Assembly: GCA_951813535.1 (NCBI GenBank)
Contig: OX638345.1
Coordinates: 3,028,608 to 3,092,607, forward strand
Direction of reading: 5' to 3'
Length of the DNA stretch: 64,000 nt
Source of the DNA: an uncultured Dehalococcoidia bacterium
GTDB taxonomy: Bacteria; Chloroflexota; Dehalococcoidia; Lucifugimonadales; UBA3495
Positions 35,201 through 56,447 of this stretch are shown piece after piece; within the stretch, counting starts at the first letter, position 1, and each line of letters starts with the position of its first letter. The notes under the pieces were generated by a model. It worked only from the letters and a program-made list of their open reading frames with translations, did not search any database and had not been told where the DNA came from. A program made the translations under genes and the position numbers.

Positions 35201-35488
35201 ATGGAAGGAAAGGTTCAGATCGAGATTACCTACTGCGTGCCTTGACAGCACCACGCTACCGCCACGTGGATGGCGAACGAGTTTTTCCGGGCCTACGGCG
35301 GCGACGCCGCTATCACGATCTCCCCGCGCGGACAGAGCATCATGGAAGTGTTCGTGGACGGTGAGAAGATCTTTGATCGGAAGGCCGAGGGCAACATCTA
35401 CCCCGACTTGGGCCGCGTCCGCAAGATGAAGGAAGTCATTTCCGCCAGGATCGCGAGCGCCGACCTCGCCGTGGCCGCCGACAACTAG
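35201..35488 (+). CDS. Rdx/SelW-like thioredoxin-fold selenoprotein (in-frame TGA = Sec at 35243-35245)
   Basis: The ORF track only calls 35270..35488. From ATG 35201 (GGAGGAG 4 nt upstream) the same frame reads MEGKVQIEITYCVP-TGA-QHHATATWMANEFF.., which matches the bacterial Rdx pattern IEYC..C....AAWMA.EL with CxxC replaced by CxxU. Confidence 0.7.
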
Positions 35489-39857: not shown

Positions 39858-40571
39858 TCAATCCAGCGCCAGCGCCGCCAATGCAGCGCGAGCCGCGGCA
39901 ACTTCGGCGGCGTTCTTGCTCGAACCGACGCCGGTGCCGAGAACCTGCTCGCCAGCGGAGACCTCGACGTCGAAACTGGGCCGGTGAGATGGACCGGCGG
40001 AGCCTACCACGCGGTAAACCGGGGTAGGTTTGCCCTGACCCTGGAGAAGTTCCTGCAGTTCGGCTTTGGGATTGTCAGGGCGCCAGCCGGGTTGGCAAGC
40101 CGATGCGATCGGTTCGGCCAGGGCGCGCAGGACGAAATCGTGGGTGGCTCCGTAGCCCTGGTCCAGGTAGATTGCCGCGATAACCGATTCCATGACGTCG
40201 CCCAGCACGGCGTCGCCGTCTCGCCCGCCGGACGCCTCGAAACCGCGGCCCAGCAGGACATACTCGGCCAACCCCAGTTCTCGGGCGGCGGCGGCCAGGG
40301 CGCGTTGGCTGAGCAGGGCGGTCCAGCGCCGGGTCAGGCCGCCTTCGTCGCATTCGGGCAGTCGGCGGAACAGTTCTTCACTCACGATGAGCCGGACCAC
40401 GACGTCTCCAAGGAACTCCAGGCGTTCGTAGGAATCGGTGTCCGAGCCGCCAGTCTCGTTGACATACGACCGGTGGGTGAGCGCCTGAATGAGCAAGCCC
40501 CGGTCCTGAAAACTCAGGCCCAGGGCTTGTTCCAGTTCGGCGACGGCGCAATGTCCGCCAAACGAACTCAA
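39858..40571 (-). CDS. rnc: Ribonuclease III
   Basis: LIQALTHRSY..ERLEFLGDVVV signature plus a C-terminal dsRBD (GPSHRPSFDVEV..G.GSSKN.AE..AA). Confidence 0.9.
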   Translation of the reverse strand: MSSFGGHCAVAELEQALGLSFQDRGLLIQALTHRSYVNETGGSDTDSYERLEFLGDVVVRLIVSEELFRRLPECDEGGLTRRWTALLSQRALAAAARELGLAEYVLLGRGFEASGGRDGDAVLGDVMESVIAAIYLDQGYGATHDFVLRALAEPIASACQPGWRPDNPKAELQELLQGQGKPTPVYRVVGSAGPSHRPSFDVEVSAGEQVLGTGVGSSKNAAEVAAARAALAALALD

Positions 40572-40589: not shown

Positions 40590-41222
40590 TTAGCTGCGCA
40601 CGCCTTCATAGGGCCACGGCGGGGACGGGCGCTTGACCTCGCCCACGTGCCTGTGGTCAGCCATCATTTCGACCAGGTTGTCGTAGATGGGTCCGGACTC
40701 GTCTTCCGACGGGATAAACATCTTGACGAAGGCGGAGTTGCCGTTCGGGAAGACGTAGAGCGGCACCCCGAAGGCGCCGTGGACTTCGACGGCCTCGGTG
40801 TGGCTCTCGCCGATTTCGCGAAGAACGTCAGGGTCGGCCAGGTCTTCGGCAAACCGGCCCATGTCGACGCCCGAGGCCTCGGCCACGGCATTGATGGCGT
40901 CCGCGTCGGTCAGGTCGATGCGATCTTCGTGTCGAGCCCTCAGCAGGTTGATGAAGAAACGATCAAAGATCTCCTCACCCTGGCGCTGGGCGGCGATGCC
41001 GGCGCGCAACTCGAGCAGCGTGTTGTCCGAGTCGTCCTGCTCCCAGAACTTGAAGCCGTCGTCGTTGTTGTTGTCGTGATTTACCTGAACCAGCGAGAAC
41101 GGCTTCAGATCCACGGCGATTTCGTGGTCAGTGTTCTCGCGTACTTTCGCCCACCACATGGCAGCGTTGTACACGAAGGGTCAACGAAAGTCGTAATAAA
41201 CGGTGAAATCAGATTCGGCCAT
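40590..41222 (-). CDS. DsbA-like (Rv2466c-type) thioredoxin-fold protein with in-frame TGA (candidate Sec) at the active site
   Basis: The ORF track calls only 40590..41174. ATG 41222 (GGAGG 7 nt upstream) opens the same frame: MAESDFTVYYDFR-TGA(41183-41181)-PFVYNAAMWWAKV... This aligns with FWFDPLCPWCW of DsbA-like reductases, with the TGA at the first Cys. Confidence 0.65.
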
Positions 41223-41295
41223 AGTGGCACCTCCTGAGGGCGGGTTTTCCGACGTGCTCAAACATCTGGTTCGAGGTCGCCAGTTTGTTGGGCCG

Positions 41296-41655: not shown

Positions 41656-42942
41656 ATGGTTACCACCTTTAATGAAAATCTGTTTTCCCCTGAGGTGATT
41701 CAGGACCCGTATTCGTACTTCGGGCGGATGCGCGAGGAAGATCCGGTTCACTGGAATGACCCCTACAAGCTGTGGGTCATTACCAAGTACAAGGACTTGG
41801 TCTGGGTCACCCGACGCCCCGAGGCGTTCTCGTCCGAAGTGTTCACCCGGGACCCGCTGCCTCCGTATCCCTCGATCGACGAGTCGGACATGGGCCTCTA
41901 CGAGGACGTGCGGAACTTCTTCAGCCAGTGGTTCATCCAGACCGACCGGCGAGCGGTGAGCACCCACGAGGAGATCCGTGAGCACGGCGGCCCTGACCAC
42001 ACCGACATGCGCAAGGTCATCCACGGCTACTTCACGCCGAAGGCCATGGAACTGTGGCGGCCGCTGGTTCAGTCTGCCATCAAGCAGTTGCTGGACGAGG
42101 CGGAAGAGCGCGGCAGCATGGACGTGATGCGCGACTACGCCACCCCGTTGCCCCTGCTGGTGATCGCCGCCATGATGGGCATCGAGACCTATGACCGGCA
42201 GTTCATCCGCTCCCTGGCCGAGAAACTGCTGTTCATCGGGCGCGGCAATGCCGACCGGATGCAGCCATTGTCCGAGGGCATCACCGAACTGCAGGAGTAC
42301 CTGCGGCCGATGGTGAAGGACCGCCTGAAGAACTCCAACGGCGACCTGCTGGACAAGATGACCGACGCCGCCCGCATGACCAACGCGGCCGGCAAGCAGA
42401 TCATGGACGAAGAGCAGGTGGTAGCCAACGCGATCCTGCTGCTGTTGGCCGGTCACGAGACCACCATCAACCTGATCTGCAACGGCACCCGGGCGTTCAT
42501 GACGCACCCGGACCAGTGGGATCTGTTCAAGTCCGATCCGGCCGGCCGCATGATCCGGGCCACCGAGGAATGCCTCCGGTACGACGCCCCGGTCAAGTCC
42601 ATCACCCGCATCGCCGGCGAGGACGTTGAACTGGGTGGCAAGACCATCCAGAAGGACGAGCGGATGCGCTGGTTCGTTACCTCCGCTAACCGCGACCCTG
42701 AGGTCTTCGACCGACCCGACGACTTTGACATCGAGCGGTACCCGAACCCTCACGTGGCCTTCGGCAGCGGCATCCACCACTGCCTGGGTGCGACCCTGGC
42801 GCGGCTCGAAGGGCAGGAAGCGTTCAAGGCTCTGGCCGAAAGGTTCCCGAACCTGAACATGGACTGCAACCCGGACGACCTGACCTATACCTCCAGCATC
42901 ACTTTCCGGACGCTGGAAAAGTTGCCGGTCAGCCTGTCGTAA
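41656..42942 (+). CDS. Cytochrome P450 (copy 1 of 4)
   Basis: I-helix LLLAGHETT, K-helix ECLRYDAP, heme loop FGSGIHHCLGATLAR. Confidence 0.92.
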   Translation: MVTTFNENLFSPEVIQDPYSYFGRMREEDPVHWNDPYKLWVITKYKDLVWVTRRPEAFSSEVFTRDPLPPYPSIDESDMGLYEDVRNFFSQWFIQTDRRAVSTHEEIREHGGPDHTDMRKVIHGYFTPKAMELWRPLVQSAIKQLLDEAEERGSMDVMRDYATPLPLLVIAAMMGIETYDRQFIRSLAEKLLFIGRGNADRMQPLSEGITELQEYLRPMVKDRLKNSNGDLLDKMTDAARMTNAAGKQIMDEEQVVANAILLLLAGHETTINLICNGTRAFMTHPDQWDLFKSDPAGRMIRATEECLRYDAPVKSITRIAGEDVELGGKTIQKDERMRWFVTSANRDPEVFDRPDDFDIERYPNPHVAFGSGIHHCLGATLARLEGQEAFKALAERFPNLNMDCNPDDLTYTSSITFRTLEKLPVSLS

Positions 42943-43111: not shown

Positions 43112-44371
43112 ATGGTTAGCACGATCAACGACAACCCGTTCTCCCTGGAAGCAATGTACCAGCCCTACGAATTCTTCGCGCGCCTGCGCGAATGGGAGCC
43201 GGTCCATTACAACGAGGAATTTGAAGTCTGGATGGTCACTGACTGGGAGCACCTCGTATGGGTGACCCGGCATCCGGAGGTCTTCTCGTCCAGCGTGTTC
43301 GCCCGGGACCCCCGGCCGCCGAACCCGCCCATCGACGAAGACGACATGGAGATCTACAACTACATCAAGAAGTGGCAGGTCTCCCGGTTCATCCAGCACG
43401 ACCAGAAGCGGTACAACCCCGGGGTCAGCGGGCCCGATCACGTGGACATGCGCCGGGTGATGCACGGCTACTTCACGCCCAAGTCCATGGAGATGTGGCG
43501 ACCGCTGGTGCAGTCGGCCATCGACGAGTTGCTGGACGCGGTGCAGGAAAAGGGCCGCATGGACGTGATGGCCGACCTGGCGACGCCACTGCCTCTGCTG
43601 GTGATCGCGCGGATGCTGGGCATCCCGGACAGCGACCGGCCCATTATGCGCCGGCTGGCCAAGGACTTGCGTCACCTGAACCGGACGGGACCGGACCGGA
43701 TGGGTCCGCTGTCGGAATCAGTGCAGAACCTGCAGGACTACCTGGGCCCGTTGGTCGACGAACGCATCGCCAGCCCCAAGGACGATCTGATTTCGGTCGT
43801 TGCCGAGGGTGCGCGTCGGGGCATCTTCGACCGCGACATGGTGGTCAACAACGTGATGCTGCTGCTGTCGGCCGGTCACGAGACCACCATCAACCTGATC
43901 TGCAACGGCACGCTGGCGTTCACGCAGCATCCGGACCAGTGGGCGATCCTGAAGTCAGATCCCGAGGGCAAGACGGTGCGGGCCACCGAGGAGGCCCTGC
44001 GCTACGACTCGCCGGTGAAGTCCATCCAGCGGATCGCGATGGAGGATATGGAGTTGAACGGGCAGCCCATCAAGAAGAACGACCGGGTGCGGTGGTTCAT
44101 CTCCGGGGCCAACCGGGACCCCAAGGTATTCGACCGGGCGGACGATTTCGACGTCGAACGCTACCCCAACATGCACGTGGCATTTGGCAGCGGTATCCAT
44201 CACTGCCTGGGCGCGACCCTGGCACGGCTGGAGGGGCAGGAGATCTTCCGCAACCTGGCCAACCGGTTCGAGAGCCTGGAGCTGGAGATCCCGGCAGACC
44301 AGGTCGAATATGACCAGTTGATCGGCTTGCGGGCAGTTGAGGGCCTGCCGGTCACAGTGACCAACGCCTGA
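43112..44371 (+). CDS. Cytochrome P450 (copy 2 of 4)
   Basis: LLSAGHETT, EALRYDSP, FGSGIHHCLGATLAR. Confidence 0.92.
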   Translation: MVSTINDNPFSLEAMYQPYEFFARLREWEPVHYNEEFEVWMVTDWEHLVWVTRHPEVFSSSVFARDPRPPNPPIDEDDMEIYNYIKKWQVSRFIQHDQKRYNPGVSGPDHVDMRRVMHGYFTPKSMEMWRPLVQSAIDELLDAVQEKGRMDVMADLATPLPLLVIARMLGIPDSDRPIMRRLAKDLRHLNRTGPDRMGPLSESVQNLQDYLGPLVDERIASPKDDLISVVAEGARRGIFDRDMVVNNVMLLLSAGHETTINLICNGTLAFTQHPDQWAILKSDPEGKTVRATEEALRYDSPVKSIQRIAMEDMELNGQPIKKNDRVRWFISGANRDPKVFDRADDFDVERYPNMHVAFGSGIHHCLGATLARLEGQEIFRNLANRFESLELEIPADQVEYDQLIGLRAVEGLPVTVTNA

Positions 44372-44588: not shown

Positions 44589-45860
44589 ATGGTCACCACC
44601 TTCAACGACAATCCGTTTTCGCCGGAAGCGATTTACAAGCCTTACGACTTTTACAACCGGCTGCGAGAGCACGAGCCGGTGTATTACAACGAGCAGTTCG
44701 AGGTGTGGATGATCACCTCGTGGGAACACCTGGTCTGGGTGACCCGGCATCCTGAGGCGTTCTCCTCCAGCGTATACGCGCGGGATACCCGCGCCCCCAA
44801 CCCGCCCATTGATGAGGATGACCTGGAGCTGTACAACTTCATCAAGAAGTGGCAGGTTTCCCGGTTCATCCAGCACGACCAGCGCCGGTATAACCCCGAC
44901 GTCAGCGGCTCCGACCATGTTGATATGCGCCGGGTCATGCACGGATATTTCACGCCCAAGTCCATCGAAATGTGGCGCCCCCTGGTGCAGTCGGCCATTG
45001 ACGAATTGCTCGACGCCGTAGAAGCGAAAGGCCGCATGGACGTGATGGCCGACCTGGCCACCCCGCTGCCTCTCCTGGTCATCGCTCGGATGCTTGGCAT
45101 CCCGGACAGCGAGCGGGAGCGCCTTCGTGAACTGGCCAAGGACCTGCGGTTCCTCAACCGCGAGGGTCCCGACCGCATGAAGCCGCTGACCCAGGCGGTG
45201 CGAAACCTGCAGGACTTCATCGCGCCCATGGTCGAGGATCGGGTCAACAGCCCCGAGAATTTCGATGCCACCGACCTGATGTCCGTGGTCTGCGAAGGCG
45301 AACGGCAGGGCGTGTTCAACCGGGACATGACTGTCAACAACATCATGCTGTTGCTGTCTGCCGGCCACGAGACCACCATCAACCTGATCTGCAACGGCAC
45401 GCTGGCATTTACGCAGCACCCGGAACAGTGGGCCATTCTGAAGTCCGATCCCGAAGGGAAGACCGTTCGCGCCACCGAAGAAGCCCTCCGGTATGACTCG
45501 CCGGTCCGGTCCATCCAGCGCATCGCAATGGATGACATCGAAATGAACGGCCAGTTGATCAAGAAGAACGATCGGGTCCGCTGGTTCATTCCTGGCGCCA
45601 ACCGTGACCCCAAGGTGTTCGACCGTGCCGATGACTTTGACATCGAGCGGTACCCGAACCAGCACGTCGCCTTTGGCAGCGGTGTCCATCACTGCCTGGG
45701 CGCCACGCTGGCTCGTCTGGAAGGACAGGAAATCTTCCGCAACCTGGCCAACCGGTTCGAAAACGTCGAACTGGAAATCCCGGTGGAACAGGTCGAATAC
45801 GACCATGTGCTCACCTTCCGCGCGGTGGAGAGCCTCCCGGTGAAGGTCACCAGCGTGTAG
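44589..45860 (+). CDS. Cytochrome P450 (copy 3 of 4; close paralog of copy 2)
   Basis: LLSAGHETT, EALRYDSP, FGSGVHHCLGATLAR. 46 of the first 60 residues are identical to copy 2 by hand alignment. Confidence 0.92.
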   Translation: MVTTFNDNPFSPEAIYKPYDFYNRLREHEPVYYNEQFEVWMITSWEHLVWVTRHPEAFSSSVYARDTRAPNPPIDEDDLELYNFIKKWQVSRFIQHDQRRYNPDVSGSDHVDMRRVMHGYFTPKSIEMWRPLVQSAIDELLDAVEAKGRMDVMADLATPLPLLVIARMLGIPDSERERLRELAKDLRFLNREGPDRMKPLTQAVRNLQDFIAPMVEDRVNSPENFDATDLMSVVCEGERQGVFNRDMTVNNIMLLLSAGHETTINLICNGTLAFTQHPEQWAILKSDPEGKTVRATEEALRYDSPVRSIQRIAMDDIEMNGQLIKKNDRVRWFIPGANRDPKVFDRADDFDIERYPNQHVAFGSGVHHCLGATLARLEGQEIFRNLANRFENVELEIPVEQVEYDHVLTFRAVESLPVKVTSV

Positions 45861-46666: not shown

Positions 46667-47896
46667 ATGCCCGCAAACATCCACGACGACCTGTTCGCCG
46701 CCGAGGCCATCCGTGATCCGTACGGCTATTTCGGGGCGTTGCGGTCGGAGGCGCCGGTACACTGGAACGAGCAATACCAGATGTGGGTGGTGACCAGCTA
46801 CGAACGGCTGGTTTGGACCGCCCGACATCCAGAATATTTCTCCTCGGAGGTGGCGCTGCGGGACAACAAGCCGCCTTCACCTACGATCCCTGAAGAAGAC
46901 ATGGAGCTTTTCGGCGCGGTGCGGAATTGGATGTCCGCCCGGTTCACCCAGAACGACGGCGCCAAGCACAAGGAAAAGCGCAAGATCGTGCATGGATTCT
47001 TCACTCCCAAGGCGATGGAAACCTGGCGTCCGCTGGTCCGCCAAACGGTGAACGACCTGCTGGACGATCTGCAGGGCGCCGGCAGAATGGACGTGATGCA
47101 CGACTTCGCTACGCCGCTCACCTATAGCATCATCGCCGGCCTGATGGACATACCGCCCAGCGACCGGGCTTTCGTCAAGGAGCTGTGCGGCAGCATGTGC
47201 GGGTTCGACGGAAACCAGCCGGACCGGATCCGGATGTATGCCGAAGGGGTACAGGCGGTGACCGATTACCTAGCGCCCATAGTGGCGGAGCGGGTTCGGG
47301 ACCCGGGCGATGACCTGCTGTCCGTGATCTGCAAAGGCGAGATCATGGGCGCCTACACCCGGGACGAGGTGTTGGCCAATGCCCTGCTGCTGCTCGTCGC
47401 CGGCCACGAGACTACCAATGACCTGATTTCCAACGGAGTGCTGGCGTTTGCGCACCACTCCGATCAGTTCGACCTGCTTCGAACCGACCCTGACGCCCAC
47501 ATTGTCAATGCAGTCGAGGAAGTGTTGCGTTACGATTCGCCGCTCAAGTCGGTACAGCGAATCGCGACCCAGGACGTGGACATGGGCGACGGCCAGAGAG
47601 TGGGCAAGGACGACCGCGTGCGCTGGGTTATCTCATCGGCCAATCGGGATCCGGGAGTTTTCGAGGAACCGGATGGCCTGGACATCACGCGAAACCCGAA
47701 CCCGCACGTGTCCTTCGGAAGCGGCGTGCACCACTGCCTGGGCGCGACCCTGGCGCGCCTGGAGGGACAGGAAGCGTTTGCGGAACTGGCCCGCCGGTTC
47801 GAAGGGTTTGAACTGGAAACGGATCCGAACGAGCTCGAATACCTGCCCAGCGTCGGGCAACGCACTTTGCTGAACCTGCCGGTTGCGACACGCTAG
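46667..47896 (+). CDS. Cytochrome P450 (copy 4 of 4)
   Basis: LLVAGHETT, EVLRYDSP, FGSGVHHCLGATLAR. Confidence 0.92.
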   Translation: MPANIHDDLFAAEAIRDPYGYFGALRSEAPVHWNEQYQMWVVTSYERLVWTARHPEYFSSEVALRDNKPPSPTIPEEDMELFGAVRNWMSARFTQNDGAKHKEKRKIVHGFFTPKAMETWRPLVRQTVNDLLDDLQGAGRMDVMHDFATPLTYSIIAGLMDIPPSDRAFVKELCGSMCGFDGNQPDRIRMYAEGVQAVTDYLAPIVAERVRDPGDDLLSVICKGEIMGAYTRDEVLANALLLLVAGHETTNDLISNGVLAFAHHSDQFDLLRTDPDAHIVNAVEEVLRYDSPLKSVQRIATQDVDMGDGQRVGKDDRVRWVISSANRDPGVFEEPDGLDITRNPNPHVSFGSGVHHCLGATLARLEGQEAFAELARRFEGFELETDPNELEYLPSVGQRTLLNLPVATR

Positions 47897-55133: not shown

Positions 55134-56447
55134 CAGGGTGTTGAAATGGGGCGTTGTCGGGTGGGGTGCAGGTGATGAAGGGTCGTGCGGCTCGGTGTGG
55201 ACGTATAGTTCGTTGGGGCGGCGGGCTGGTTGACGCTGGTTGCGGGGCGTTTGGTGGGCCCCGGTGGTTGAATGGGGGCGGTCGGGACAGACCTGTCCCA
55301 GGTTTTACGCTGACGCCGGCGTGAGTTTGGAAAGCCTGACCAGGTTGTAGCTGGCGGTGGTCAGCTCCATCCAGAACCGGTTGCGTTCCAATCCGCAGTA
55401 GCGCAGTTTCCGGCCGCCGCCCACCGTCTTCACCCAGCCAAAGACCTCCTCAACCCGTTTCCTGGCACGCTGGCTGAGGCGATACCCCTCGTGTCGGGTG
55501 GTGCGCCGGTCGATGGCCGAGCGCTGCTTCTGGGCCACATGCGGCGTTACCCGAGACTTTCTACTTCCCCTGACGAAACCCCGGGTGTCATAGCCGCGGT
55601 CAGCGCCCACGGTGATCCGTCCGGCGCCGGGCACCGCCTCCAGCATCTCCAACGCCGCGTCCCGTTCCGACGCGCCGCCAGCGGGCGTGAGACGCACGTC
55701 CACCACCAGTCCCTCCCGATTGTCCATCAGCACGTGAGCCCCAAAGCACAGCTTCGCTTCCTTCCCCTTGCCCTTCCTGGCCAGCCTGGCCTCCGGATCA
55801 GTGGTGGACCGGTGGGTATCGTTGCTGCGCCGCTCACCCCGAAAGTCCACCTCCGGATTGCGTCCACCATCAGATGGTGGCTCATCCTCGTCTCTGGGTC
55901 GGAAACTCTTCACCGACGCCCAGGCCTCCAACAGCGTCCCATCCACGCTGAAGTGTTCCTCAGAGAGCAACCTCTGCTCCCTGGCCTGCCCCACGATCTC
56001 CAGCAGAAACTCCCGCGCCACCTCGGCATCCAGCAACCGCTGCCGGTTCTTGGCAAACACCGAGTGGTCGAAACTGTGGTCCATGATGTTCAGGTCCAGA
56101 AACCACTTGAACAGCAGGTCGTACTCCAGCCGTTCGCAGAACTGCCGCTCGCTGCGCACCGAGAACAGCGCCATCAACAGACAGGCTTTCAGCAGGTGCT
56201 CCGGTGGGATCGACGCTCGGCCATTGGCCGCGTACATTCGGTCAAAGGTGGGTGAGAGCTGAGCCAGGGCCCGATCCACCATGGGCTTGATGCGCCGGAT
56301 GGGATGATGTTGGGGCACCAGGGCATCCGGCGTAACCGCCGTCAGCATCGTTGCCTGTCGAGCCGCTTTGCCTCTCATGGAAACCCTCACTACCGGGGAT
56401 GGCCCATCCTACCACCCGGCATTCACGCCCCAATTTTCAACACCCTG
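55134..56447 (-). mobile_element. IS5-family insertion sequence (single-ORF type, 1314 bp)
   Basis: Imperfect terminal inverted repeats CAGGGTGTTGAAATGGGGCG (55134-55153) and CGCCCCAATTTTCAACACCCTG (56426-56447). CTAA target-site duplication at 55130-55133 and 56448-56451. Confidence 0.9.
55305..56390 (-). CDS. IS5-family DDE transposase (InsH-like N-terminal domain)
   Basis: IPPEHLLKACLLMALFSVRSERQFCERLEYDLLFKWFL.. (DUF772-like N-terminus), ..VDGTLLEAWAS.., ..ITVGADRGYD.., RVEEVFGWVK. Confidence 0.9.
   Translation of the reverse strand: MRVSMRGKAARQATMLTAVTPDALVPQHHPIRRIKPMVDRALAQLSPTFDRMYAANGRASIPPEHLLKACLLMALFSVRSERQFCERLEYDLLFKWFLDLNIMDHSFDHSVFAKNRQRLLDAEVAREFLLEIVGQAREQRLLSEEHFSVDGTLLEAWASVKSFRPRDEDEPPSDGGRNPEVDFRGERRSNDTHRSTTDPEARLARKGKGKEAKLCFGAHVLMDNREGLVVDVRLTPAGGASERDAALEMLEAVPGAGRITVGADRGYDTRGFVRGSRKSRVTPHVAQKQRSAIDRRTTRHEGYRLSQRARKRVEEVFGWVKTVGGGRKLRYCGLERNRFWMELTTASYNLVRLSKLTPASA

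Follow-up and report, generated by a model that had tools for sequence, protein, structure and literature searches.

The Sargasso Sea was the source of the DsbA-like selenoproteins with a U-x-x-C motif reported in 2005. In the GOS selenoproteome (Zhang & Gladyshev 2008, PMC2398784), DsbA 1 (UxxC), DsbA 2 (UxxC) and DsbA 3 (UxxV) were listed, and the last of them, belonging to pfam01323, had 5 sequences and 72 Cys homologues. One of the DsbA 3 sequences given in the supplement of the same paper reads MTTDTKTYNFSIYFDFRUPFVYNVAVWLTQVR.... A prokaryotic selenoprotein catalogue of 2026 (PMC13188914) contained a DsbA-like form 1 (UxxC) and a DsbA-like form 2 (DxxUP), both of which were assigned to PF01323.

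Among the proteins with Cys, DR_2335 of Deinococcus radiodurans (7DK9/7DKA) is described as DsbA-like, is predicted to be cytoplasmic and has one conserved Cys, and Rv2466c of Mycobacterium tuberculosis (PF22234; 4NXI, 4ZIL) is a mycothiol-dependent reductase with a dithiol C-P-W-C motif.

The gene studied here, from a SAR202/Dehalococcoidia bacterium, belongs to a family that is already known, the U-x-x-V motif having been published in 2008. The original prediction mentioned DsbA-like selenoproteins from marine metagenomes in general, and this very subfamily could be found in the GOS paper, where it is listed as 'DsbA 3'. When aligned over 202 aa with the GOS DsbA 3 sequence JCVI_READ_1592875, the protein was 50% identical (E 3e-73). 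Judged from sequence comparison, the gene very probably encodes a 210-residue cytoplasmic DsbA-fold selenoprotein of the 'DsbA 3 (UxxV)' type, in which a UGA codon would be recoded as Sec and a monoselenol mechanism would be used.

Gene layout and neighbourhood

An interrupted DsbA-like gene with an in-frame TGA was confirmed on the minus strand of the window (the whole 64-kb stretch of DNA analysed). Translation, Pfam and tblastn gave a CDS of 210 codons including the putative Sec14 (40590..41222, minus strand), which started with ATG (41222-41220) and ended with TAA (40592-40590). A Shine-Dalgarno (SD) sequence GGAGG (41230..41234, minus strand) could be read upstream, with a 7 nt spacer to the ATG. 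The in-frame TGA (41181..41183, minus strand) was codon 14, giving the motif D-F-R-U-P-F-V if it is decoded as Sec. The read-through product was composed of 13 codons, MAESDFTVYYDFR, then the TGA, then PFVYNAAMWWAKV...; the context of the site was ...YYDFR-U-PFVYNAAMWWAK, and ...FGVPLYVFPNG... was also included. The GTG (41172..41174, minus strand) chosen as start by the ORF tool was not the real start; it had no SD, and no purine-rich stretch was seen ahead of it by direct reading of the sequence. The layout noted in the original prediction (GGAGG, 7 nt, ATG 41222, TGA 41183-41181 and the SD-less GTG 41174) was the same at every position when read again.

No cysteine existed in the 210-residue read-through product. 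Its N-terminus had no hydrophobic leader, and led directly into strand beta1.

An RNase III gene (39858..40571, minus strand), with the ERLEFLGD signature in its ORF, was located 18 nt downstream of the DsbA-like CDS, and the two genes are probably co-transcribed. The same signature was present downstream in 55 of the 82 TGA-form loci, while Ribonuclease_3 Pfam matches adjoined the Cys forms at L081 and L084. The functional reason for the linkage between RNase III and a selenoprotein gene was not obvious.

On the plus strand, divergent from the DsbA-like gene, four paralogous ORFs in tandem, each 409-428 aa long, were found (41656-42942, 43112-44371, 44589-45860 and 46667-47896), with the common motif FGSG(I/V)HHCLGATLARLE, and these appeared cytochrome P450-like by eye. 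Another ORF of 361 aa, rich in Arg and Lys (55305-56390, minus strand), was transposase-like by eye.

Protein fold and active site

The read-through product matched Pfam DSBA (PF01323) with an E value of 3.9e-15 over residues 8-162, and the match thus began upstream of the TGA. No NCBIfam model matched the DsbA-like protein. It had been named 'Rv2466c/DsbA-like' in the original prediction; the DsbA-like part was borne out by the PF01323 match, but the Rv2466c type was not, as no PF22234 match was obtained at E<=1. Membership of the Rv2466c type was also rejected in view of the E value of 0.0017 for PDB 4NXI and of U-P-F-V in place of C-P-W-C. The relationship to Rv2466c is thus a distant one. 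With PF22234, one of the Cys homologues, P0023, lay at the borderline with 27.8 bits (cut-off 27), and 13.7 bits were obtained for the GOS member. Apart from this over-specific label, the core of the earlier interpretation was supported. The best PDB sequence match was DR2335 (7DK9, E 1.6e-15), in which the sole Cys of the DFLCPYAW motif aligned with position 14; it is the C24 named in the title of the 7DKA mutant (C24S).

A structural model was made with AlphaFold for P0023 (pLDDT 84.7, pTM 0.84). In this model strand beta1 was formed by residues 6-10 and helix alpha1 by residues 15-31, so that residue 14 lies immediately ahead of the N-terminal end of alpha1, at the canonical position of the thioredoxin-fold nucleophile. 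When the model was compared with known structures by Foldseek, the best match was DR2335 (TM 0.78, 28% identity), then Rv2466c (TM 0.62-0.69) and YjbH (TM 0.57-0.59), and classical DsbA gave a TM of about 0.40-0.55 with E around 1e-3. An identity as classical periplasmic DsbA was rejected, with no signal peptide, no second Cys and the weak structural match.

The gene could also encode a real selenoprotein which is not a reductase, and which takes part in small-molecule isomerisation or conjugation like kappa-GST and 2-hydroxychromene-2-carboxylate (HCCA) isomerase, with Sec replacing the Ser that activates a bound thiol cofactor. The D-x-x-U-P-x-x-Y of the window protein resembles D-x-x-S-P-x-x-Y, which we take to be the motif of the kappa-GST/HCCA isomerase branch; both kappa-GST and HCCA isomerase were among the Foldseek matches of the P0023 model (TM 0.52-0.58), and genes judged P450-like by eye were abundant beside the locus. 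However, the sequence similarity to GST kappa was insignificant (E 0.1, partial), and the structural similarity was below that to DR2335 and Rv2466c. Furthermore, it is typically in redox nucleophiles that Sec takes the place of Cys, and some Cys forms were placed among peroxiredoxin, OsmC and glutaredoxin genes. Such a function is considered unlikely, and a selenium-dependent redox enzyme is the preferred reading.

Conservation, hairpin and decoding of the TGA codon

One genome per species was used in the genome scan, and the best-matching 80 loci were from Dehalococcoidia, SAR202 or sponge-associated Chloroflexota. Their tblastn matches spanned residues 1-210 with protein identities of 57-98%, and in the window as well as in the best-matching 80 species-level genomes codon 14 was TGA (81 of 81). 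All the TGA-form sequences (82/82) had an SD and a start codon located 13-15 codons upstream of the TGA. In the same 82 sequences the five codons preceding the TGA occurred in 15 nucleotide variants, every one encoding [Y/F]YDFR; since these codons varied synonymously while [Y/F]YDFR was constant, the N-terminus is translated and under purifying selection. On the evidence of these sequences, the TGA arrangement is far beyond chance. The second position of CxxC, which had been noted as Val in the window, was Val across all relatives.

In one subclade (L033-L038, L041, L043, L045 and L046) a Cys was present six residues before Sec, reading ...DF[LT]C[YF]YDFRU.... This codon-8 Cys was absent from the window and most relatives, and could either serve as a resolving residue specific to this lineage or be incidental.

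A protein search with the DsbA-like protein gave 72 homologue clusters. Twelve of them were full-length (~210 residues), and in these Cys took the place of the TGA within the stretch ...FYDFR-C-PFVYN...; another 59 were shortened to ~189-197 residues and started just past the TGA position, the gene callers in relatives having started at the GTG codon or at Met22. In six Cys-form loci (L081 and L083-L087) the codon at the site was TGT or TGC. Two of these, L081 and L084, were followed by RNase III like the window gene, and were therefore regarded as positional orthologues. The TGA had been proposed to align with the nucleophilic Cys, and it did fall on the sole active-site Cys of the full-length homologues.

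Some metagenome Cys forms were part of a conserved series of redox genes, encoding AhpC/Redoxin peroxiredoxin, the DsbA-like protein, OsmC, glutaredoxin and a short-chain dehydrogenase (L085 4-1729, L086 127-2759 and L087 56-3264), a setting different from that in the window with its RNase III gene.

Trp was present at the site in one cluster (P0019, L082 313-945), and this was rejected as a gene-caller artefact because the DNA is TGA and the call is not translatable under table 11. The call, apparently made with a non-standard code, has put a spurious 'W-P-F-V' homologue into the protein database.

If the existing annotation were right, a 13-residue peptide would end at the TGA and the DsbA-like protein would be made separately from GTG 41174 or ATG 41159. 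The ORF tool and the public callers agreed on this, and the 59 shortened clusters begin accordingly. But neither GTG 41174 nor ATG 41159 was preceded by an SD, and the 13 upstream codons, the SD and the ATG were conserved in all TGA forms with variation at synonymous sites; the orthologues do not start at the downstream GTG, a start which the original prediction had named as grounds for refutation. The PF01323 match also started before the TGA, at residue 8, the Cys homologues were each one continuous ORF, and in the shortened product both strand beta1 and the residue for catalysis would be missing from the fold. A separate start is thus highly improbable, and read-through from ATG 41222 is preferred.

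In essentially every public SAR202/Dehalococcoidia genome, the product called for this gene was 189-194 residues long, had lost its N-terminus and was named 'hypothetical' or 'DsbA family'. With 59 of the 72 clusters truncated and one mistranslated, the first beta-strand is missing from the databases together with the catalytic residue, and the practical value of the DsbA-like selenoprotein finding lies in annotation.

A putative bSECIS element was found downstream of the TGA. RNAalifold gave an apical hairpin (41148..41166, minus strand) with the stems CGCUGCC and GGU(G)GGCG and the apical loop AUGU (41159-41156, minus strand), which is separated from the UGA by 21 nt. In the MFE fold of the window sequence, the apical hairpin was extended by a 9-bp lower stem (41136..41177, minus strand), and this stem-loop, which began 3 nt past the TGA, had a free energy of -18.4 kcal/mol over 57 nt. 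The AUG of the loop (41156-41159, minus strand) is the codon of Met22, the false start in most public gene calls.

In an alignment of 43 distinct orthologues, RNAalifold retained the apical hairpin (columns 18-24 and 29-36), with 94% of its cells paired. Pair 18-36 changed from C-G to U-A in 4 sequences, through third-position synonymous changes in Asn and Ala codons, and pair 22-31 changed from G-C to A-U in 2 sequences and to G-U in 18. When the 3' partners were shifted by 1-3 columns, the pairing decreased from 91% to 31-52%. For the lower stem, 88% of the cells were paired across relatives, with little covariation and mostly one-sided variation, so it was weakly supported; the lower stem (41177-41136) was rejected as a conserved element and the apical hairpin alone is claimed.

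According to the published bSECIS criteria (PMC13188914), the apical loop has 3-9 nt, the upper stem 4-16 bp, the spacing is 16-37 nt, and the MFE is -7.5 kcal/mol or lower. The window hairpin, with a loop of 4 nt, an upper stem of 7 bp with one bulge, a spacing of 21 nt and -18.4 kcal/mol, was inside all these ranges. In its loop A-U-G-U the G is the third base, and G27 and U28 were invariant across relatives; only variants in which G is the first loop base (G-U-G-U; G at column 25) agree with the loop-G rule of bSECIS. Over the hairpin stretch the four distinct Cys sequences folded weaker, their energies lying between -6.6 and -12.8 kcal/mol compared with a mean of -16.9 kcal/mol.

As for selenocysteine use by the organism, no tRNA-Sec and no SECIS family was found in the 64-kb window by Rfam and ARAGORN, which gave only a tRNA-Gly, and no SelA, SelB or SelD was seen by inspection among the window ORFs of >=300 aa. 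A 96% identical orthologue with the TGA was present in L015 (MPNC01000001.1, SAR202 bin87). MPNC00000000 is bin87 of Slaby et al. 2017, in whose Table S4 the COG matches of this bin include SelA (3), SelB (1) and SelD (1). The Sec trait was reported for many cultured Chloroflexi, and one partial SAR202 single-cell genome was negative (Peng et al. 2016).

A second Sec candidate, a SelW-like gene nearby, had been proposed as well and proved real. This SelW/Rdx-like gene (35201-35488, plus strand), located ~6 kb from the DsbA-like gene, reads MEGKVQIEITYCVP-TGA-QHHATATWMANEFF..., with QHHATATW... after the TGA (35243-35245), which gives the motif C-V-P-U (C-x-x-U). When U was replaced by C, the product matched Pfam Rdx (PF10262, SelW/SelT family) with an E value of 1.2e-10. 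Taken together, the DsbA-like and the SelW-like genes point to an organism that decodes UGA as Sec, and the rest of its proteome is therefore worth screening for more selenoproteins.

One of the standard amino acids, Trp, Cys or Gly, might be inserted at the UGA through reassignment or near-cognate suppression. This would agree with the public call P0019, which translates the codon as W, and with the lack of Sec machinery in the 64-kb window. Against this, the W of P0019 was an artefact, and TGA was the ordinary stop of 7 of the 20 long window ORFs taken as genes, so the codon has not been reassigned. The homologues carry a catalytic Cys at the site, a classic Sec/Cys pair, a conserved hairpin lies downstream of the TGA, and the genome of the near-identical orthologue has SelA, SelB and SelD. 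Decoding as a standard amino acid is hardly to be expected, and Sec is the preferred reading of the codon. A pseudogene or a sequencing error, with the TGA as a recent nonsense mutation, had nothing beyond the presence of the stop codon in its favour, and its probability is practically negligible, being already refuted by the comparative data, in which the position of the TGA was shared by all 81 independent assemblies, of 57-98% protein identity, and purifying selection acted on either side of it.

Proposed mechanism and comparison with known systems

Judging from the comparative evidence, translation would start at ATG 41222, and the UGA of codon 14 would be decoded as Sec by SelB and Sec-tRNA(Sec). 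These would be recruited by the hairpin within the CDS, with its apical loop 21 nt past the UGA. Sec14 would then be placed at the N-terminal end of alpha1, at the site of the nucleophilic Cys in CxxC proteins. Because the second CxxC position is Val and cysteines are completely absent, the selenolate would have to use a monothiol-type cycle; with one selenol and no cysteine, the protein has no internal resolving residue. An Se-S intermediate may be formed when the selenolate attacks its substrate, which could be a sulfenic acid, a disulfide or an S-thiolated protein. This intermediate would then be resolved by a thiol from outside, supplied by glutaredoxin or a similar partner or by a compound of low molecular weight.

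The peroxiredoxin - DsbA-like - OsmC - glutaredoxin row of some Cys forms would fit with an antioxidant or de-thiolating role. A wider proposal is that the Sec form, found in the best-matching 80 of 80 genomes, is fixed across most SAR202/Dehalococcoidia and is a lineage-wide selenium-dependent component of the defence against organic peroxides or S-thiolation; as a whole this is doubtful. The hosts would be oxygenase-rich marine heterotrophs, the gene would often be co-transcribed with RNase III, and a thiol partner would take part. If it is true, it would offer a tractable entry point to the function of the DR2335 / 'DsbA 3' family.

No paper on this protein was found in the literature on structure 7DK9 or on SAR202 selenocysteine, and neither DsbA nor Chloroflexi was mentioned in the deep-Sep paper.

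Compared with the known systems, the window protein was DR2335-like, with a single nucleophile in D-F-x-C-P (here Sec) at the start of alpha1, no resolving Cys and a cytoplasmic location. DR2335 differs in its size (232 aa, with extra insertions) and in having Cys instead of Sec, with C-P-Y-A against U-P-F-V in the window. Rv2466c shares with the window protein the cytoplasmic location, the DsbA fold, the length of ~200 residues and the nucleophile starting alpha1, but it is distinguished by the dithiol motif. Judged by eye, GOS 'DsbA 2' (...DPIUPWCW...) looks like a true Rv2466c-type selenoprotein.

In the 2026 catalogue (PMC13188914), form 1 (UxxC) has a resolving Cys while the window protein has none. 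At the level of the motif, the D-F-R-U-P of the window fits the 'DxxUP' pattern of form 2.

The closest system was GOS 'DsbA 3', which belongs to PF01323 and is U-x-x-V like the window protein, and the active-site decapeptide, FDFRUPFVYN in the GOS form, is common to them. Since the DsbA 3 family was catalogued in 2008, the present finding is correct but ordinary, and the knowledge of selenoproteins is unchanged by the window gene. The additions are modest: the family was assigned to SAR202/Dehalococcoidia, the best-matching 80 species-level genomes all had the Sec form, covariation was found in a defined hairpin, and a link to the DR2335 structure was made. GOS DsbA 3 consists of five unassigned surface-ocean reads, whereas the window gene stands in a genomic context of 64 kb, and its orthologues, unlike the GOS reads, were placed in at least 80 species-level Dehalococcoidia/SAR202 genomes.
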